64,000 bases of DNA from a virus (Duplodnaviria > Caudoviricetes): positions 2,871 to 66,870 of the IMG/VR virus record IMGVR_UViG_3300011336_000135; one strand, given 5' to 3'. A program made the translations under genes and the position numbers. Within the stretch, counting starts at the first letter, position 1. Every line of letters starts with the position of its first letter. The notes below the pieces were generated by a model. The model saw only the letters and a list, made by a program, of their open reading frames with translations, was not told where the DNA came from and did not search any database. This document shows positions 1 through 6,221 of this stretch, piece after piece.

Positions 1-102
1 GACAACAAACTTGCTCCGCAAGTCCCATTAGCGCGAGAGTTTGGGGTGTCCCAACGGACTATAAGTCTAATAGTGCGACGTGAAACATACAAGGATGTAT
101 AA
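1..102 (+). CDS. 3' end of an upstream gene (partial); C-terminal HTH typical of HNH homing endonucleases
   Basis: Frame 1 reads DNKLAPQVPLAREFGVSQRTISLIVRRETYKDV* with TAA at 100-102, directly before the polymerase ATG. The LAxxFGVSxxTISxI pattern is an HTH commonly found at the end of phage HNH endonucleases. The catalytic part is outside the window. Confidence 0.55.
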   Translation, partial: DNKLAPQVPLAREFGVSQRTISLIVRRETYKDV

Positions 103-2877
103 ATGGAGATACTTGTAGTAGACGCAGAAACTTATTACGATAAAGAGTTCAGCCTATCCAAGATGACGATGGAAGCGTATGTACGCGATCCTCGTTTTGA
201 AGTCATCATGCTGGGCATCCGCTGGCCGGATGGGAAGAAGGAGATCATCACTGGCACCGAAGCAGAGGTGCAGTACCGGCTGGACGCCATCGAGTGGGAC
301 AAGTACGCGGTGCTGGCTCACAACACATTGTTCGATGCCGCTATCCTGTCGTGGCGTTTTGGAGTGAAGCCTGCTGCGTGGCTGGACACCCTGTCGATGG
401 CTCGCGCCATGTTCGGGATGAAGGGCAACTCGCTGGCTCTGCTTGCCAAGCGCTACGGACTGGAGGACAAGGGCACCGAGGTGCAGAACGCGATGGGCAA
501 ACGCAGGGCTGACTTCACCGCAGAGGAGTTCGCCAAGTACGCTGACTACTGCCTGCATGACGTAGAGCTATGCCATGAGTTGTTCTTCCTCATGTCCAAC
601 GGTTGGTACAACCCGGAGACGTTCGATCATCGGGACCCTTACCCACGCAAAGAACTGGAGTTGATCGACAAGCTCATCAGGATGTACACCGAGCCTGTGC
701 TGCGTCTGAACAAGGCGCAGTTGGAGGAGCATCTGGCAGATGTGATCCGCCGCAAGGAAGAACTGCTGTCCAACGCAGGCATCGCCAAGGAAGACCTGAT
801 GTCCAACCCGAAGTTCGCTTTGGTGCTGGAGAGTTTTGGGGTCGTCCCGCCGATGAAGATCAGCCCGACCACAGGTAAGCAAGCGTTCGCTTTCGCCAAG
901 ACCGATCCGGCTATGAAGGCCCTGCTGGACCATCCCGACGAGCGGGTGCAGGCTGTGGTAGCTGCGCGTATGGGTGTGAAGAGCACGTTGGAGGAGACCC
1001 GCACGCAGCGGTTCATTGACATGGCGGGGCGCAATCCCCTGTTCCCGGTGCCCCTGCGATATTCCGCTGCGAGAACGCACCGCTTGGGCGGCACTGATGG
1101 TATAAACCTGCAGAACCTTCCGGCTCGTGGGGCGCAGGCTAACAAGCTCAAGCGCTGTATCGAGGCACCTCCGGGCTACGTGATCATTGACTGCGACTCG
1201 TCCAACATCGAGGCGCGGATGCTTGCGTGGCTGGCAGGGCAGGAAGATCTTGTAGAAGACTTCGCCAACGGTGTTGATGTGTACTGCAAGATGTCTGGAA
1301 AGATATTCGGCAGAGAGATAACGAAGGCGGACAAGAAGGAGCGGTTCCTTGGCAAGACAGTGGTGCTGGGTTGCGGATACCAGACTGGCGCAGTGAAACT
1401 TCAGGTGACACTGAAGGCGTCCGAGATGAACTTGGACTTGGAACTCGATGAGTGCAAGCGGATCATTGACACGTATCGGTACTCAGTCCCTGCCATCACA
1501 AGACTGTGGAGGCAAGGTGAGGCAGCTATCGAGACGATGTACGGCGACAAGACCATGTGGTTCGGTCGTGAAGGTGTCGTGCTGGTCGAGGGGCGCAAAG
1601 GAATCAAGCTGCCAAGCGGGCTATACATCAGCTATCCGCAACTGCACCGTGGGGTGAAGAACAAAAACGGTATGGCGATGGAGGCGTGGCAGTACAAGGA
1701 TGAGACAGGGCTGGTGGATATTTATGGCGGTAAATTGGTTGAAAACTGCATAGCCGAAGGTACGCCTGTGCTAACCACCCGAGGGTGGGTCCCCATAGAG
1801 CAAGTTCAGCAAGAAGACCTCGTCCATGATGGGGTTGAGTTTGTAAGGCACGGGGGAGTAGTTTTCAAATCTGTCCAAACTTGTGTTAGCATCGACGGGG
1901 TACTCATGACCCCAGACCACGAGGTGCTGACAAATGACGGATGGACCCCTGCATCACAGAACCCGCAACCTTACCGACCAGACCTTCGGCATGTTGAAGG
2001 CGTTGAACCCCGAGCACAGCGATGGGAAGAAGCTGAGTTGGCGGTTTCAGTGCCAGTGCGGGAAGCAATGCGTCAAAGTAGGAGCCGATGTAACGAAGGA
2101 GGTCAAGCGCGGAGGGACGCCGAACTGCGGTTGTACAACAAAGCAGCTACAAAGCAAAGCGCGTGTAACTCATGGTATGTCGAAACACCCTGCATTTGCA
2201 GTGTGGAGGTCAATGAACGACCGTTGCAAACTACCGTCGCATCAAGCGTGGCACAACTACGGGGGGCGTGGCATCACAGTATGCGAACGCTGGCGGGATT
2301 CTTTCCAAAACTTTTGGCAGGATATGGGGCCTACATACCAGCGGGGGTTGGACCTCAACCGCAGGGACAACGATGGGGCTTACAGCCCGGAGAACTGCGA
2401 ATGGGTCACACGCAGAGCGAACTCGATGAACAGGCGCAGCAGCATTCAGGGGGTGGACATACCAAAACTAAGCGAAGAAACCGGTATATCCAGGAGCACA
2501 CTTTACTACAGATTACAGCATGGATGGACAGTGGATCAGCTACGGAAAACGCCGTCGTTCAACAACCGGTGTATGACATCCTCAATGCTGGCCCAAGACA
2601 GCGGTTTGTAGTACGTGGTAGTTCGGGGCCGTTTATAGTTCACAACTGCGTGCAAGCCCTGGCCCGCATCGTTGTGATGCAGCAGCTACTGAAGATCTCC
2701 AAGAAGCTGCATGTGGTCCTGACCGTGCATGATGCTGTAGCTGCCATTGCCCGTGAGGAAGAAGCTGAACAAGCTCAGGCATACGTTGAAGAATGTATGC
2801 GCTGGGTTCCCAAGTGGGCACAGGGGTGCCCGATCAACTGTGAGAGTGGAATAGGAAGGACATACGGTGACTGTTGA
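103..2877 (+). CDS. polA: Family A DNA polymerase (3'-5' exonuclease plus polymerase domain), intein-containing
   Basis: Exo motifs VVDAETYY, AHNTLFD, YCLHDV. INLQNLP; motif A DCDSSNIEARMLAW; motif B ERFLGKTVVLGCGY; YGGKLVEN/CVQALAR; motif C VLTVHD. Confidence 0.95.
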   Translation: MEILVVDAETYYDKEFSLSKMTMEAYVRDPRFEVIMLGIRWPDGKKEIITGTEAEVQYRLDAIEWDKYAVLAHNTLFDAAILSWRFGVKPAAWLDTLSMARAMFGMKGNSLALLAKRYGLEDKGTEVQNAMGKRRADFTAEEFAKYADYCLHDVELCHELFFLMSNGWYNPETFDHRDPYPRKELELIDKLIRMYTEPVLRLNKAQLEEHLADVIRRKEELLSNAGIAKEDLMSNPKFALVLESFGVVPPMKISPTTGKQAFAFAKTDPAMKALLDHPDERVQAVVAARMGVKSTLEETRTQRFIDMAGRNPLFPVPLRYSAARTHRLGGTDGINLQNLPARGAQANKLKRCIEAPPGYVIIDCDSSNIEARMLAWLAGQEDLVEDFANGVDVYCKMSGKIFGREITKADKKERFLGKTVVLGCGYQTGAVKLQVTLKASEMNLDLELDECKRIIDTYRYSVPAITRLWRQGEAAIETMYGDKTMWFGREGVVLVEGRKGIKLPSGLYISYPQLHRGVKNKNGMAMEAWQYKDETGLVDIYGGKLVENCIAEGTPVLTTRGWVPIEQVQQEDLVHDGVEFVRHGGVVFKSVQTCVSIDGVLMTPDHEVLTNDGWTPASQNPQPYRPDLRHVEGVEPRAQRWEEAELAVSVPVREAMRQSRSRCNEGGQARRDAELRLYNKAATKQSACNSWYVETPCICSVEVNERPLQTTVASSVAQLRGAWHHSMRTLAGFFPKLLAGYGAYIPAGVGPQPQGQRWGLQPGELRMGHTQSELDEQAQQHSGGGHTKTKRRNRYIQEHTLLQITAWMDSGSATENAVVQQPVYDILNAGPRQRFVVRGSSGPFIVHNCVQALARIVVMQQLLKISKKLHVVLTVHDAVAAIAREEEAEQAQAYVEECMRWVPKWAQGCPINCESGIGRTYGDC
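1747..2646 (+). mobile_element. Intein (300 aa) inserted in DNA polymerase between KLVEN and CVQALAR
   Basis: Block A CIAEGTPVLT (Cys1 codon tgc at 1747), block B MTPDH (TxxH), block F VYDI, block G FIVHN ending at 2646, and C+1 Cys at 2647. Removing it restores the conserved YGGKLVEN-CVQALAR. Confidence 0.95.
1934..2611 (+). CDS. HNH-family homing endonuclease encoded in the +1 frame inside the intein
   Basis: N-terminal WRFQCQCG...NCGC; core YGGRGITVCERW...FWQDMG...LNRRDNDGAYSPENCEWVT...ANSMN; C-terminal HTH GISRSTLYYRL. SD-like GAGGTG at 1921-1926, 7 nt before the ATG; TAG at 2609-2611. Confidence 0.88.
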   Translation: MTDGPLHHRTRNLTDQTFGMLKALNPEHSDGKKLSWRFQCQCGKQCVKVGADVTKEVKRGGTPNCGCTTKQLQSKARVTHGMSKHPAFAVWRSMNDRCKLPSHQAWHNYGGRGITVCERWRDSFQNFWQDMGPTYQRGLDLNRRDNDGAYSPENCEWVTRRANSMNRRSSIQGVDIPKLSEETGISRSTLYYRLQHGWTVDQLRKTPSFNNRCMTSSMLAQDSGL

Positions 2878-3046
2878 AGTTGTTGTGGATTACGCCTACC
2901 CGTGCATGATGGCGGAGAAGGCACTGAAGGAACTGCACCAAGCCATGCTGCGAGGTGATGTAGACGCTGCCCTGGAGCACGCGCTGACTGCGATGGCTGA
3001 AGCCAAGCTGACCTACAACGCCATTCGGGCTACGAAGGAGCAGTGA
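2867..3046 (+). CDS. Small hypothetical protein (59 aa), not in ORF track
   Basis: GTG start after AGGAAGGA; reads VTVEVVVDYAYPCMMAEKALKELHQAML...KEQ*; the stop overlaps the next ATG (TGATG). Confidence 0.65.
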   Translation: MTVEVVVDYAYPCMMAEKALKELHQAMLRGDVDAALEHALTAMAEAKLTYNAIRATKEQ

Positions 3047-3726
3047 TGAGCTTGCCCGGTGCTTGGTCGTATTCGTCCCTGAAGAAGTTCAAGACATGCC
3101 CGAAGCAGTTTGCTGAGGTCAAGGTCTACAAGAACTTCACGGAGCCGCCGTTCACAGAAGCAACGCTGTACGGGAGCAGTTTCCACGAAGCGGCTGAGCA
3201 CTACGTGCGCGATGGCACCCCCCTGCCTGAGGCATTCAACTACGTCAAGTCTCACCTCGACACCTTGCGTAGCATCGAGGGGACCAAGCTGTGTGAGCAC
3301 AAGATGGGGTTGACGCAGCAGCTAGAGCCTTGCGACTTCAGCGCGAAAGATGTATGGTGCCGAGGTGTGGCAGACCTTCTCATCGTCAACGAGGAGAAAG
3401 GCATCGCTCGGATCGTGGACTACAAGACTGGCAAGTCTGCCAAGTACGCCGACACGGCGCAGTTGGAACTGATGGCGCTCATGGTCTTCAAGCACTTCCC
3501 TGCGCTCCGCAGGGTCAGGGCAGGGTTGCTCTTCGTCGTGGCAAACGACTTCAAGCGGGCGGACTACGACCGGACGCAGGAGAAGAACTACTGGCGGCAG
3601 TGGATGCAGGACATCGGCAGGCTGGAAGGGGCGTACAAATCTGGCGTCTGGAACCCCAACCCGTCGGGTCTGTGTAGGAAACACTGCGTGGTAACAAGCT
3701 GCCCACACAATGGAGCCAACGGATGA
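3046..3726 (+). CDS. Cas4-like / PD-(D/E)XK exonuclease
   Basis: WSYSSLKKFKTCP, G..FHEAAE, RGVADLLI, IVDYKTGK, QLELMA, and C-terminal C..HC...C (Fe-S-type Cys pattern). Confidence 0.85.
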   Translation: MSLPGAWSYSSLKKFKTCPKQFAEVKVYKNFTEPPFTEATLYGSSFHEAAEHYVRDGTPLPEAFNYVKSHLDTLRSIEGTKLCEHKMGLTQQLEPCDFSAKDVWCRGVADLLIVNEEKGIARIVDYKTGKSAKYADTAQLELMALMVFKHFPALRRVRAGLLFVVANDFKRADYDRTQEKNYWRQWMQDIGRLEGAYKSGVWNPNPSGLCRKHCVVTSCPHNGANG

Positions 3727-3763
3727 ACTGGGTTCAACTGGAACTTGATTTTGGAGAAGAGCC

Positions 3764-4033
3764 ATGCCCTACAAGGATATGTCCGACCGGGACCACAAGA
3801 AGGAGTACGCAGACTTCCTCGCCAACGGAGGCAGAGCCAAGCAGTCCGAGCGACAGCGTGCACGCCGAGCCTGGGACAAGGAACACGGTAAGGATTCTCG
3901 AAAGGGCAAGGCCCTCGATCATGTGAAGCCGATCAAGGACGGGGGCAAGAGCACTCCGGGCAACGTGAAGCTCAAGAGCTTCAGCGCCAACAGCGCGAAG
4001 AATTTCAAAGGTCCCCGCTCAGGCGGGCGTTGA
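3764..4033 (+). CDS. Small HNH-motif protein
   Basis: LDHVKPIKDGG...GNVKL...AN His-Me finger pattern; GGAG upstream. Confidence 0.65.
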   Translation: MPYKDMSDRDHKKEYADFLANGGRAKQSERQRARRAWDKEHGKDSRKGKALDHVKPIKDGGKSTPGNVKLKSFSANSAKNFKGPRSGGR

Positions 4034-4058
4034 CGCGTAGCCCCACTGGGGCTATGCT
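4030..4058 (+). promoter_or_regulatory. Sigma70-like promoter with a palindrome in the spacer
   Basis: TTGACG-N17-TATGCT; the spacer region contains the perfect inverted repeat TAGCCCCA-C-TGGGGCTA. Confidence 0.6.
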
Positions 4059-4142
4059 TTCGTTTCCTCGGCAAGACCGAGGTCCGTGGCTCGATGGGTT
4101 CCCCCTATCGGGCCGTTCTGCTATTCACATCAGGAGAAAAAC

Positions 4143-4676
4143 ATGACGGTAATGAAGAACGTAATGATAGACATAGAAACACTCGGCACTAGACCGGGGG
4201 ATACTATCCTCAGCATCGGTGCTGTGAAGTTCGATGAGAACGGGTTGGGTGAAGAGTTCTACGTCACCATTGACCCAGAGTCCTGCAAAGCAGCAGGACT
4301 TCGTGCGCAGAAAAGCACGTTGGAGTGGTGGGGTAAGCAGTCTGCTGAGGCCCGCGCTGCTGCGTTCAAGGGTGAGTTTAGCCTTAACACTGCGCTCACC
4401 AAGTTCACCATGTGGATGCCGCCGATTGATACGGTACTGGTCTGGGGTAACGGCGCAAACTTTGACAACGCACTGGTAGCCGCTGCCTACCGAGCCCTGA
4501 AGATGGATGTGCCTTGGCACTTCTGGAACGACCGCTGCTACCGCACCATCACGGCAATCTTCATGAAGACGAAGGTTGAGCGAGTAGGCACCGGGCACCA
4601 TGCGCTGGACGATGCCAAGACCCAAGCCCTGCGCCTGCTGAAGATGCAGGAAGAAGCTAAGTTCCCTCTGAGGTAA
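4143..4676 (+). CDS. DEDD-type 3'-5' exonuclease (DUF5051/RNase AS-like)
   Basis: MIDIETLG, WGNGANFD, RCYRT, HHALDDA; start assigned to the ATG after CAGGAGA. Confidence 0.85.
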   Translation: MTVMKNVMIDIETLGTRPGDTILSIGAVKFDENGLGEEFYVTIDPESCKAAGLRAQKSTLEWWGKQSAEARAAAFKGEFSLNTALTKFTMWMPPIDTVLVWGNGANFDNALVAAAYRALKMDVPWHFWNDRCYRTITAIFMKTKVERVGTGHHALDDAKTQALRLLKMQEEAKFPLR

Positions 4677-4679
4677 GGC

Positions 4680-6221
4680 ATGCAGATCATCGAGGACAGA
4701 GCCCTTTTGCTCAAGCTGCGGCACCCCGAGCGGGTGCTCAACACCATACCGAAGAGCAAGCGTCTAGACGATGGGCAGGTGCTGGTGCGGTGGGGGCTTG
4801 AGGAAGCTCAGGTCCTGAAGAACCTCGGGGTGAAGAACGTCCCCTCACCCATCGAGGGGCGCTACAAATGGCCGGGGCTGTTCAAGCCGTTCGACCACCA
4901 ACGAGAGACCGCAGCGTTCATGACCCTGCACCGCAGGGCGTTCTGCTTCAACGACCCGGGCACGGGCAAGACAGCCAGCTTCGCGTGGGCTGCTGACTAC
5001 CTGCTGGACAAAGGCTACGTCAAACGCGTGCTGGTCATCTGCCCGCTGTCGATCATGAACTCGGCATGGCAGGCGGACCTGTTCAAGACCATCATGCACC
5101 GCACGGTGGACGTAGCGCACGGTAGCAGAGACAAGCGGGTCAAGGTCATCAACTCCGGGGCTGAGTTCGTCATCATCAACTTCGACGGTGTAGAGACAGT
5201 CCTGCCTGAACTTAAAGCCGGGGGGTTCGACCTCGTCATCATTGACGAAGCCAATGCAGTAAAGACAGCAACAACTAAAAGATGGAAATCAATCAACTCA
5301 CTCATCACTCCAGAAACGTGGTTGTGGATGGCGACCGGCACGCCCGCTTCGCAGTCTCCGATAGACGCATACGGCATAGCCCGCATGTTGAATCCTTCCT
5401 CCGTACCTCCGCACTTCTACTCCTTCAGAGATCAGGTGATGTACAAAGTCACCCAGTTCAAATGGACAGCAAAGAAGAACGCAGCGGAGATCGTCAACAG
5501 GGTACTCCAACCCGCGATACGCTTCACCAAGGATGAGTGCCTGGACCTGCCTGAACTGCTGTACACCACGCGTGAAGTGTCACTGACCCCGCAGCAGGCG
5601 AAGTATTACAAGATGCTGAAGGATCAGTTCATCATGGCAGCGGCAGGGGAGACAGTCACTTCCGTTAACGCTGCAACGAACCTGAACAAACTCTTACAAG
5701 TAGCCAGCGGAGCGGTGTACACAGACGACGGCAACACGGTGGAGTTCGACATCACGCACCGGTACAACGTGCTGGTGGAAGCCATCGAGGAGAGCACCCA
5801 CAAGGTGCTGGTCTTCGTCCCGTTCAGGCACGCCATCGAGGTGCTACGTGACCGGCTCCGCAAGGATGGGTACGCAGTGGATGTGATCCACGGCGGGGTC
5901 TCTGTCAACAACCGCACGGAGATCTTCAAGAACTTCCAGACCCAGCCCGAGCCCCGCATCCTGCTCATCCAGCCTGCGGCTGCATCGCACGGCGTGACCC
6001 TACACGCAGCGAACACCGTGGTCTGGTGGGGTCCTGTGACCTCCAACGAGATCTGGCACCAAGCCAACGCCCGCGTGCATCGGGCAGGGCAGAAGAACCC
6101 CTGTCTCGTCGTGAGGCTGTGTGGCTGCAACGTGGAGCGCAAGCTCTATGACGCGCTGGACCTCAAGACCGAGGACATGGACACCCTGCTCAATCTTTAT
6201 CGGGAGGAGCTTGACGCCTAA
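4680..6221 (+). CDS. SNF2-family (SF2) helicase
   Basis: DPGTGKT Walker A, IIDEA, ATGTP, HGVTL, QANARVHRAGQ motif VI. Confidence 0.92.
   Translation: MQIIEDRALLLKLRHPERVLNTIPKSKRLDDGQVLVRWGLEEAQVLKNLGVKNVPSPIEGRYKWPGLFKPFDHQRETAAFMTLHRRAFCFNDPGTGKTASFAWAADYLLDKGYVKRVLVICPLSIMNSAWQADLFKTIMHRTVDVAHGSRDKRVKVINSGAEFVIINFDGVETVLPELKAGGFDLVIIDEANAVKTATTKRWKSINSLITPETWLWMATGTPASQSPIDAYGIARMLNPSSVPPHFYSFRDQVMYKVTQFKWTAKKNAAEIVNRVLQPAIRFTKDECLDLPELLYTTREVSLTPQQAKYYKMLKDQFIMAAAGETVTSVNAATNLNKLLQVASGAVYTDDGNTVEFDITHRYNVLVEAIEESTHKVLVFVPFRHAIEVLRDRLRKDGYAVDVIHGGVSVNNRTEIFKNFQTQPEPRILLIQPAAASHGVTLHAANTVVWWGPVTSNEIWHQANARVHRAGQKNPCLVVRLCGCNVERKLYDALDLKTEDMDTLLNLYREELDA

Follow-up and report, generated by a model that had tools for sequence, protein, structure and literature searches.

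Inteins with a homing endonuclease in a reading frame other than that of the host protein have been described in actinobacteriophages, where the endonuclease is out of frame or antisense (bioRxiv 10.1101/2025.01.02.630785), and in a cyanobacterial dnaX intein with an out-of-frame LAGLIDADG endonuclease (bioRxiv 10.64898/2026.09.14.751524). Related arrangements are fractured genes, in which a free-standing endonuclease gene lies between the halves of a split intein (Dassa et al. 2009, PMC2677866), and the ShiLan element, an out-of-frame HNH gene within a phage DNA methylase (PMC11855218). Citations of the intein in the polymerase (P45) of phage APSE-1 go back to 1999 (van der Wilk et al. 1999, cited in PMC549080), and differential loss of the polymerase intein has been reported among APSE phages (PMC7313666). 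Here, an intein in a family A DNA polymerase gene was analysed in a 64,000-nucleotide stretch of phage DNA (the window; positions 2,871–66,870 of IMG/VR virus record IMGVR_UViG_3300011336_000135), which covers most of the 66,870 bp record, graded complete. The ends of the intein are read in the polymerase frame and its middle, in the +1 frame, is an HNH-like nuclease gene; the design as a whole is very probably a mobile intein made of two overlapping genes.

The closest described case is APSE-1 (NC_000935/AF157835), which has the same intein family, polymerase motif, HNH family and +1 frame (46% amino acid identity) and whose nested gene begins with GTG at the corresponding V-H-H-R-A-K-D position; its intein lies three codons upstream (...GGKS/C...HN/CEN..., site c; a slash marks a junction), whereas that of the window lies at ...VEN/CVQA (site a), and in the APSE-1 record only the 3' 140 codons of the nested open reading frame (ORF) are annotated (P46, 'HNH endonuclease'). 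The actinophage inteins likewise have the splicing domain in the extein frame, the endonuclease in another frame and an in-frame middle without recognizable fold, and the same origin has been proposed for them, namely invasion of an intein by a free-standing endonuclease gene; their endonucleases, however, are endonuclease VII-like in frame 3 or LAGLIDADG or VSR-like in antisense, with HNH only in frame, whereas the window family has an HNH-like gene in frame +1 and cultured carriers that infect proteobacteria. Shared with the dnaX intein are the overlap of reading frames, selection that depends on the frame, a disordered in-frame middle and the coexistence of intein-free and intein-bearing alleles in populations (the counterpart here being metagenome X13, see below); the dnaX intein differs in its cellular host, nuclease family (LAGLIDADG) and host gene. 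The layout of the fractured genes is found exactly, with the same intein and HNH gene, in a relative (L027), whereas the window keeps the polymerase frame open and would give one continuous precursor. The ShiLan element also hides an HNH gene in a shifted frame while the frame of the host gene stays open, but it has no splicing domain, whereas the gene in the window is enclosed by a complete intein. The inteins treated in the phiCbK paper are different ones.

The original prediction, made from the window alone, had named the PolA site, the HNH family and a non-actinobacterial phage as likely novelties. All three are already in GenBank (APSE-1 P45/P46, SFCi1 and Caulobacter phages), and the architecture belongs to the class described in the two preprints. 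No paper on an HNH-type out-of-frame intein nuclease or on this polymerase site was found in a literature search that did not cover the 1999 APSE-1 paper. Possibly new are the at least four neighbouring insertion points, the copies in helicase genes and the split-intein form.

The intein and intein-free alleles

The coordinates of the polymerase ORF, the intein, the +1 ORF, its Shine-Dalgarno-like GAGGTG and its ATG all held on re-examination. The parts are as follows (window positions, strand, description and evidence; pLDDT, predicted local distance difference test; AF2, AlphaFold2).

103–2877, plus: family A DNA polymerase ORF, 924 amino acids, interrupted by 900 bp at 1747–2646 (codons 549–848)
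103–1746, plus: N-extein (3'-5' exonuclease, palm/fingers), ending ...Y-G-G-K-L-V-E-N; PF00476 E 1.2e-28, phrog_17 E 2e-79
1747–2646, plus: intein, 300 codons in the polymerase frame; absent from L046–L048, Foldseek matches are inteins
1747–1998, plus: predicted N-terminal splicing domain, blocks A and B, T-P-D-H at 1909–1920; AF2 pLDDT 92–97, third-position substitutions
1921–1926, plus: Shine-Dalgarno-like GAGGTG formed by the intein His-Glu-Val codons (block B), 7 nt 5' of ATG 1934
1934–2611, plus: nested gene for a putative HNH-like homing endonuclease, +1 frame, 225 amino acids; phrog_374, AF2 model, substitution pattern
1999–2544, plus: polymerase-frame linker, the stop-free reading of the nuclease gene; no confident predicted fold
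2357–2362, plus: HNH-frame codons Asn142-Arg143, which align to Asp74-His75 of I-HmuI
2545–2646, plus: predicted C-terminal splicing domain, block F V-Y-D-I...R-F-V-V and block G I-V-H-N; pLDDT 95, columns conserved in 22 homologs
2647–2877, plus: C-extein, Cys+1 (TGC) followed by V-Q-A-L-A-R, motif C; phrog_7766 E 4e-22

The intein has the terminal residues of class 1 at both ends: Cys1 (TGC, 1747–1749) and T55-P-D-H58 (1909–1920) in the N-terminal part, and His299-Asn300 (2641–2646) followed by Cys+1 (2647–2649) at the C-terminal junction. Cys1, Thr55, His58, Asp277, His299 and Asn300 were invariant in an alignment of 22 intein-bearing loci; two of the 80 best further loci differ at the intein end, and both have polymerase-frame stops. 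The splicing blocks, all of which the original prediction had reported, are present, with the qualification that block F carries Arg where many inteins have His. An AF2 model built from the 22-locus alignment had a pLDDT of 92–97 for residues 1–84 and 267–300 and of 31–43 for residues 85–266, and in a Foldseek search of the PDB its top matches were the gp41-1, MchDnaB-1, Mtu RecA and Msm DnaB inteins (probability 1.00, E 2e-3 to 1e-2). An Rfam scan of 1400–3000 at E up to 1 returned no intron or other RNA family. By its residues and modelled structure, 1747–2646 is confirmed as a class 1 intein with HINT fold in the polymerase frame; splicing itself is predicted.

Intein-free alleles, for which a search had been proposed, were found by blastn: L046–L048 (92% nucleotide identity; N-extein 96% identical in amino acids) lack exactly 900 bp, the alignment stopping at 1746 and resuming after 2646, and read ...YGGKLVEN-VVQA... 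where the window reads ...VEN/intein/CVQA.... The residue at +1 in intein-free alleles is Val, Leu or Ile. Among 79 relatives of the N-extein with a parsable site, 77 had no insert, one (L056) had the intein and one (L124) had a stop codon at the site. The L124 polymerase (motif near amino acid 1236, frame 0) is otherwise intact and intein-free and reads ...VENI*QA..., with Cys at the stop position in relatives; the stop could be a sequencing error, a sign of a pseudogene or a case of recoding.

The distribution is sporadic, as for a homing gene, the intein being absent from L046–L048 (92% nucleotide identity) and present in L056 (82%). In metagenome X13, from an independent study, one contig covers 1716–2691 gap-free with both junctions at approximately 98% identity, and a loose end ...YGGKLVEN-V joined at 2650 represents an empty allele in the same sample; the intein-free allele of X13 is seen only as this loose end, and among the contigs of X1, X13, X14 and X17 none joined directly across 1747–2646. 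The 30 nt 5' of the junction contain eight synonymous differences between the window and intein-free L047 (background approximately 7%, p approximately 8e-4), a pattern that would fit co-conversion of a short tract by a diverged donor and is an indirect hint of homing.

Selection on and start of the nested gene

The +1 ORF matched PHROG 'HNH endonuclease' families with E from 1e-53 to 1e-22 (phrog_374 1.4e-53, phrog_3377 1.7e-47), whereas the polymerase-frame middle matched nothing in the same family profile search. The AF2 model of the 225-residue +1 protein had a mean pLDDT of 83, compared with approximately 33 for the polymerase-frame reading of this DNA, and its layout is a Cys4 ribbon, a helical domain, a beta-beta-alpha core and a C-terminal helix-turn-helix.

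For a frame-specific substitution test, the window was compared with L056, where the same intein occurs with 73% nucleotide identity (genome and exteins approximately 82%). Over 1747–1933, substitutions were distributed 8/8/25 over the three polymerase codon positions (25/41 at third positions); over 1934–2608 they were distributed 41/40/108 over the HNH codon positions (108/189 at third positions; chi-square p 3e-11); and over 2609–2646 polymerase-frame third positions again took 8/13. The alignment of the two inteins contained a single gap, of 3 nt. Mean pairwise identity over 22 loci was 0.51 in the HNH frame versus 0.28 in the polymerase frame, and was higher in the HNH frame in all 231 of 231 pairs. 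Over the nuclease gene, the polymerase frame of the window has no stop codon, versus 7.8 expected from synonymous shuffles (stop-free in 0/2000), and the third frame has 11. The same was found at 21 distinct loci: no polymerase-frame stops over the nuclease gene, with shuffles giving 4–9 and being stop-free in at most 0.9%, and 5–20 stops in the third frame; free-standing homologs had 5–32 stops in the equivalent frame. Because fold, substitution pattern, conservation and stop counts agree, selection maintains a nuclease gene in the central part of the intein and, in the polymerase frame there, acts only against stop codons.

An endonuclease ORF located in another frame between the splicing blocks, an open extein frame and purifying selection in the endonuclease's own frame, the three features that define the class, were thus all found. 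The earlier proposal of a mini-intein-like splicing domain, an overprinted +1 HNH gene of free-standing type with a Shine-Dalgarno sequence and start of its own, and a stop-free linker agrees with both the substitution patterns and the structure predictions; it had suggested the separate family search of the two frames and the test for purifying selection in the +1 frame, and is further backed by the conserved starts described below, by the intein-free alleles and by the split-intein relative L027 with its stand-alone HNH gene. A related allele from an aquaculture metagenome (X14) lacks 1 nt at 2149 and has 1 extra nt after 2162, a compensated pair that shifts both overlapping frames over approximately four codons.

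Upstream of ATG 1934 the HNH frame of the window is closed by an in-frame TGA (1928–1930), and in 21/21 loci inspected a stop closes this frame 1–13 codons before an ATG or GTG start, which occupies one of two equivalent positions and is preceded by a Shine-Dalgarno-like purine-rich string (21/21). At the first position, that of the window, the start lies within the intein L-T-(N/D)-(D/E)-G-W codons, and the His-Glu-Val codons of block B give GAGGT(G) 7 nt upstream. At the second, a few codons later, the protein begins (M/V)-H-H-R-A-K-D and the (E/K)-G-W codons give the purine-rich string; at this point the polymerase frame encodes any of Cys, Asp, Asn, His, Ser and Arg, yet in every case the codon finishes with AT or GT and a G follows. 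Because of the upstream stop, and of a start and Shine-Dalgarno-like string conserved despite the variable polymerase residue, the nuclease is probably initiated separately and not by frameshifting.

Proposed mechanism and alternatives

In the proposed mechanism, the polymerase would be translated straight through the 900-bp insert, whose two ends would together form a HINT splicing domain. Through Cys1, Thr-x-x-His, the terminal His-Asn and Cys+1, this domain would cut out the whole insert, the unstructured linker of approximately 180 residues included, and rejoin the polymerase as ...VEN-CVQA.... Read one base later, the DNA of the middle would act as an independent gene, started at ATG 1934 from its own ribosome-binding site, and its product would be a 225-residue HNH-like DNA endonuclease, whose family otherwise occurs in phages as free-standing genes. 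In co-infected cells, intein-free polymerase alleles would be cleaved or nicked by this enzyme and would acquire a copy of the intein during repair (homing). The overlap of two genes in one element accounts for selection that follows the nuclease frame centrally and the polymerase frame at either end.

Several findings weigh against this reading. No experiment showing splicing, internal initiation or cleavage was found for any member of the family. The intein diverges more (73% nucleotide identity to L056) than the exteins (approximately 82%), which gives no indication that it passed very recently between the window and L056 lineages. The other points concern the nuclease. No Pfam or NCBIfam HNH model matched the +1 protein (E up to 1), and in NCBIfam no family was returned for the product of either frame; of the 'HNH-family' label in the original prediction, the agreement with the PHROG 'HNH endonuclease' families stands and that with the curated models does not. 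The canonical His general base is missing: a profile of 27 relatives gave a weak match (E 0.024) to the HNH motif of I-HmuI (PDB 1U3E), in which Arg143, invariant in the 27 relatives, corresponds to His75, and residue 142 to Asp74. We take Asp74-His75 of I-HmuI to be an active-site pair of metal ligand and general base. Residue 142 is Asp or Glu in 25/27 relatives, including the nearest, L056, and Asn only in the window and L001; the caution that had been attached to the LNRRDN core was well placed. The window copy of the nuclease may, as judged from this residue, be inactive.

In the AF2 model, strands were assigned to 139–143 and 155–159 and a helix to 160–164. The best match in the PDB was the HNH restriction enzyme PacI (3M7K; Z 6.3, root-mean-square deviation 2.3 over 75 residues), which lies below the caution level of Z 8 and came only from the all-against-all aligner, a Foldseek search of the PDB with the whole multi-domain model giving nothing at E up to 1e-3; this modelled similarity is suggestive only. 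PacI presumably also lacks the His and uses a Tyr instead, and Tyr109 and Tyr150 are invariant among the relatives of the +1 protein. In a protein atlas search, all matches were to viral clusters without names; they pointed weakly to NUMOD1 and I-HmuI_NUMOD-like DNA-binding modules. Because the curated HNH models fail, the general-base His is Arg and the structural match is only suggestive, the predicted protein is termed HNH-like, of the phage homing nuclease type; it cannot be assigned to the canonical HNH family with confidence.

The substitution at residue 142 leads to a variant of the proposal in which the architecture is as described but the nuclease of the window has been killed or weakened by Asp142Asn, so that the intein persists by splicing only, at a late stage of the homing cycle. 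The position aligned to the presumed metal ligand of I-HmuI and its conservation as Asp or Glu, L056 included, speak for it. The nuclease ORF is nevertheless intact and deviates otherwise at only two highly conserved positions (family range 0–4), as is the case for many relatives, L001 likewise combines Asn142 with an intact ORF, and in beta-beta-alpha-Me nucleases Asn can also serve as a metal ligand; a dead or weakened nuclease is judged unlikely, although it deserves real weight. Production of the nuclease by a programmed +1 ribosomal frameshift, as an N-extein–intein–HNH fusion, would be compatible with two frames that share strand and messenger RNA, but the HNH frame is closed by a stop shortly before a conserved start at all 21 loci, the start is kept while the polymerase-frame residue varies, no conserved slippery site was seen and split-intein relatives carry the same nuclease as a stand-alone ORF, which makes such a fusion very improbable.

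Even less is to be said for the remaining two explanations. The insert might be a group I intron with an HNH gene, removed as RNA, with an incidentally open polymerase frame; phage group I introns, those of polymerase genes included, commonly carry HNH genes of this general kind (PMC3428280). Against this stand the lack of an Rfam match, a polymerase frame that is stop-free in 76/80 loci against expectation, and the canonical intein residues and HINT fold, and an intron is considered extremely unlikely; low-depth contigs of an RNA library (X17) extend across both junctions, although DNA carry-over is possible and they say little on transcription. An assembly or sequencing artefact, in which compensating indels mask an ordinary in-frame HNH intein, had been raised in the original prediction, and nothing was found in its favour; the same +1 offset occurs in 76 metagenomic loci (both frames kept in 76/80) and in finished genomes of cultured phages, and the independent X13 contig spans 1716–2691 gap-free, so that an artefact can be given almost no credence. 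Two overlapping genes within one intein remain the preferred reading.

Family, insertion points and variant forms

Relatives of the intein were collected from IMG/VR by a pattern search using the intein alignment, which gave at least 368 loci, and frames were checked in the best 80, of which 76 had an open polymerase frame and a +1 ORF matching the HNH profile (E 1e-71 to 1e-100). In cultured phages, tblastn matches to this nuclease lay under the DNA polymerase gene as annotated in Hamiltonella phages APSE-1 to APSE-7, and likewise in Shewanella phage SFCi1 and Caulobacter phages GB2A, RW, RLK and KcrB. Intein and +1 frame were confirmed in the sequence for APSE-1, SFCi1 and GB2A; RW, RLK and KcrB were matched under the annotated polymerase gene. 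The nested ORF is unannotated in the SFCi1 and GB2A records. A design lately described as 'rare' is thus common in phage polymerases, at hundreds of loci with the nested gene mostly unannotated, and dual-frame inteins are readily mislabelled as decaying or mini-inteins. The cultured Caulobacter, Shewanella and APSE phages make internal initiation, splicing of the junk linker and homing testable.

The polymerases of L021 and L003 hold, besides an intein of the window type, a second intein in motif B, each with an out-of-frame phrog_374 nuclease; two dual-frame inteins lie within one gene. The second intein of L021 (L021:2634–3413 in ORF L021:1138–4824) ends ...HN/CGYQGG and has its nuclease in frame +2 (phrog_374 E 4e-29), and that of L003 (L003:2417–3253 in ORF L003:1978–4947) ends ...HN/CELAFGYQGG, with the nuclease in frame +1 (phrog_374 E 1e-26).

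The length of the spliced polymerase motif is constant, and the intein lies before a Cys at four neighbouring positions, with the following counts among the best 80 loci: K/CVEN 6, KL/CEN 27, VEN/CxQA 37 and ENF/CQA 1. In a quick maximum-likelihood tree of the nucleases, the polymerase insertion sites were intermixed, with mixed clades supported in the Shimodaira–Hasegawa-like approximate likelihood ratio test (SH-aLRT) by 99 for site b with L012 (site a) and L023 (site c) and by 96 for L020 (site a) with L025 (site c). The same intein with a +1 HNH gene was also found in an SNF2-type helicase motif, in L181 (match 1501–2409) and L197 (1501–2433), at differing insertion points (...LNKLLQIS/CGAAYTD and ...SLTMK/CLQLANGAL). 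It is conceivable, if somewhat doubtful, that intein and nuclease travel as one unit without a fixed insertion point, the cut site being uncoupled from the splice site. If so, Cys+1 would be carried in by repair, the unit would re-target codons and genes far more freely than classical inteins, and intein-free alleles with Cys exactly at insertion positions would be scars of precise loss.

A Cys at the intein +1 position (ENCTQA or YGGKCVEN) was observed in intein-free L067, L068, L091, L095, L098, L103–L106, L108, L111 and L112; to judge by their sequence, precise loss of an intein may have left such alleles as scars, or they may be landing sites that existed beforehand. In the helicase ORF of the window (4680–6221), the motif that is interrupted in L181 and L197 is uninterrupted, NKLLQVASGAVYTD.

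In the split form, L027:1917–4935, an ORF of N-extein and N-intein (1917–4010) ends in a stop and is followed by a free-standing HNH gene (3986–4633) and by an ORF of C-intein and C-extein (4495–4935) ending ...VSN/CTQA; L196, which has polymerase-frame stops, may also be a split form, to judge by its frames. At the site of the window, L200:1501–1911 has a 137-residue mini-intein (...LTEN/C...VHN/CVQA) with no nested nuclease ORF, a form that is either ancestral or the product of a deletion. With mini, continuous dual-frame and split forms, the family offers a series in which the combination of inteins with free-standing endonuclease genes can be studied.

The nearest cultured relatives of the window polymerase are those of Rhizobium and Pseudomonas phages (32–36% amino acid identity), and megablast of window positions 1–4000 against cultured phages gave zero matches. 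Riverine metagenome assemblies also contain the window sequence. Just 3' of the polymerase, an 89-residue ORF (3764–4033, plus strand) has a motif D-H-V-K-P-I-K-D-G-G...N that resembles a small HNH-type nuclease, and may be a second nuclease-like gene near the polymerase.

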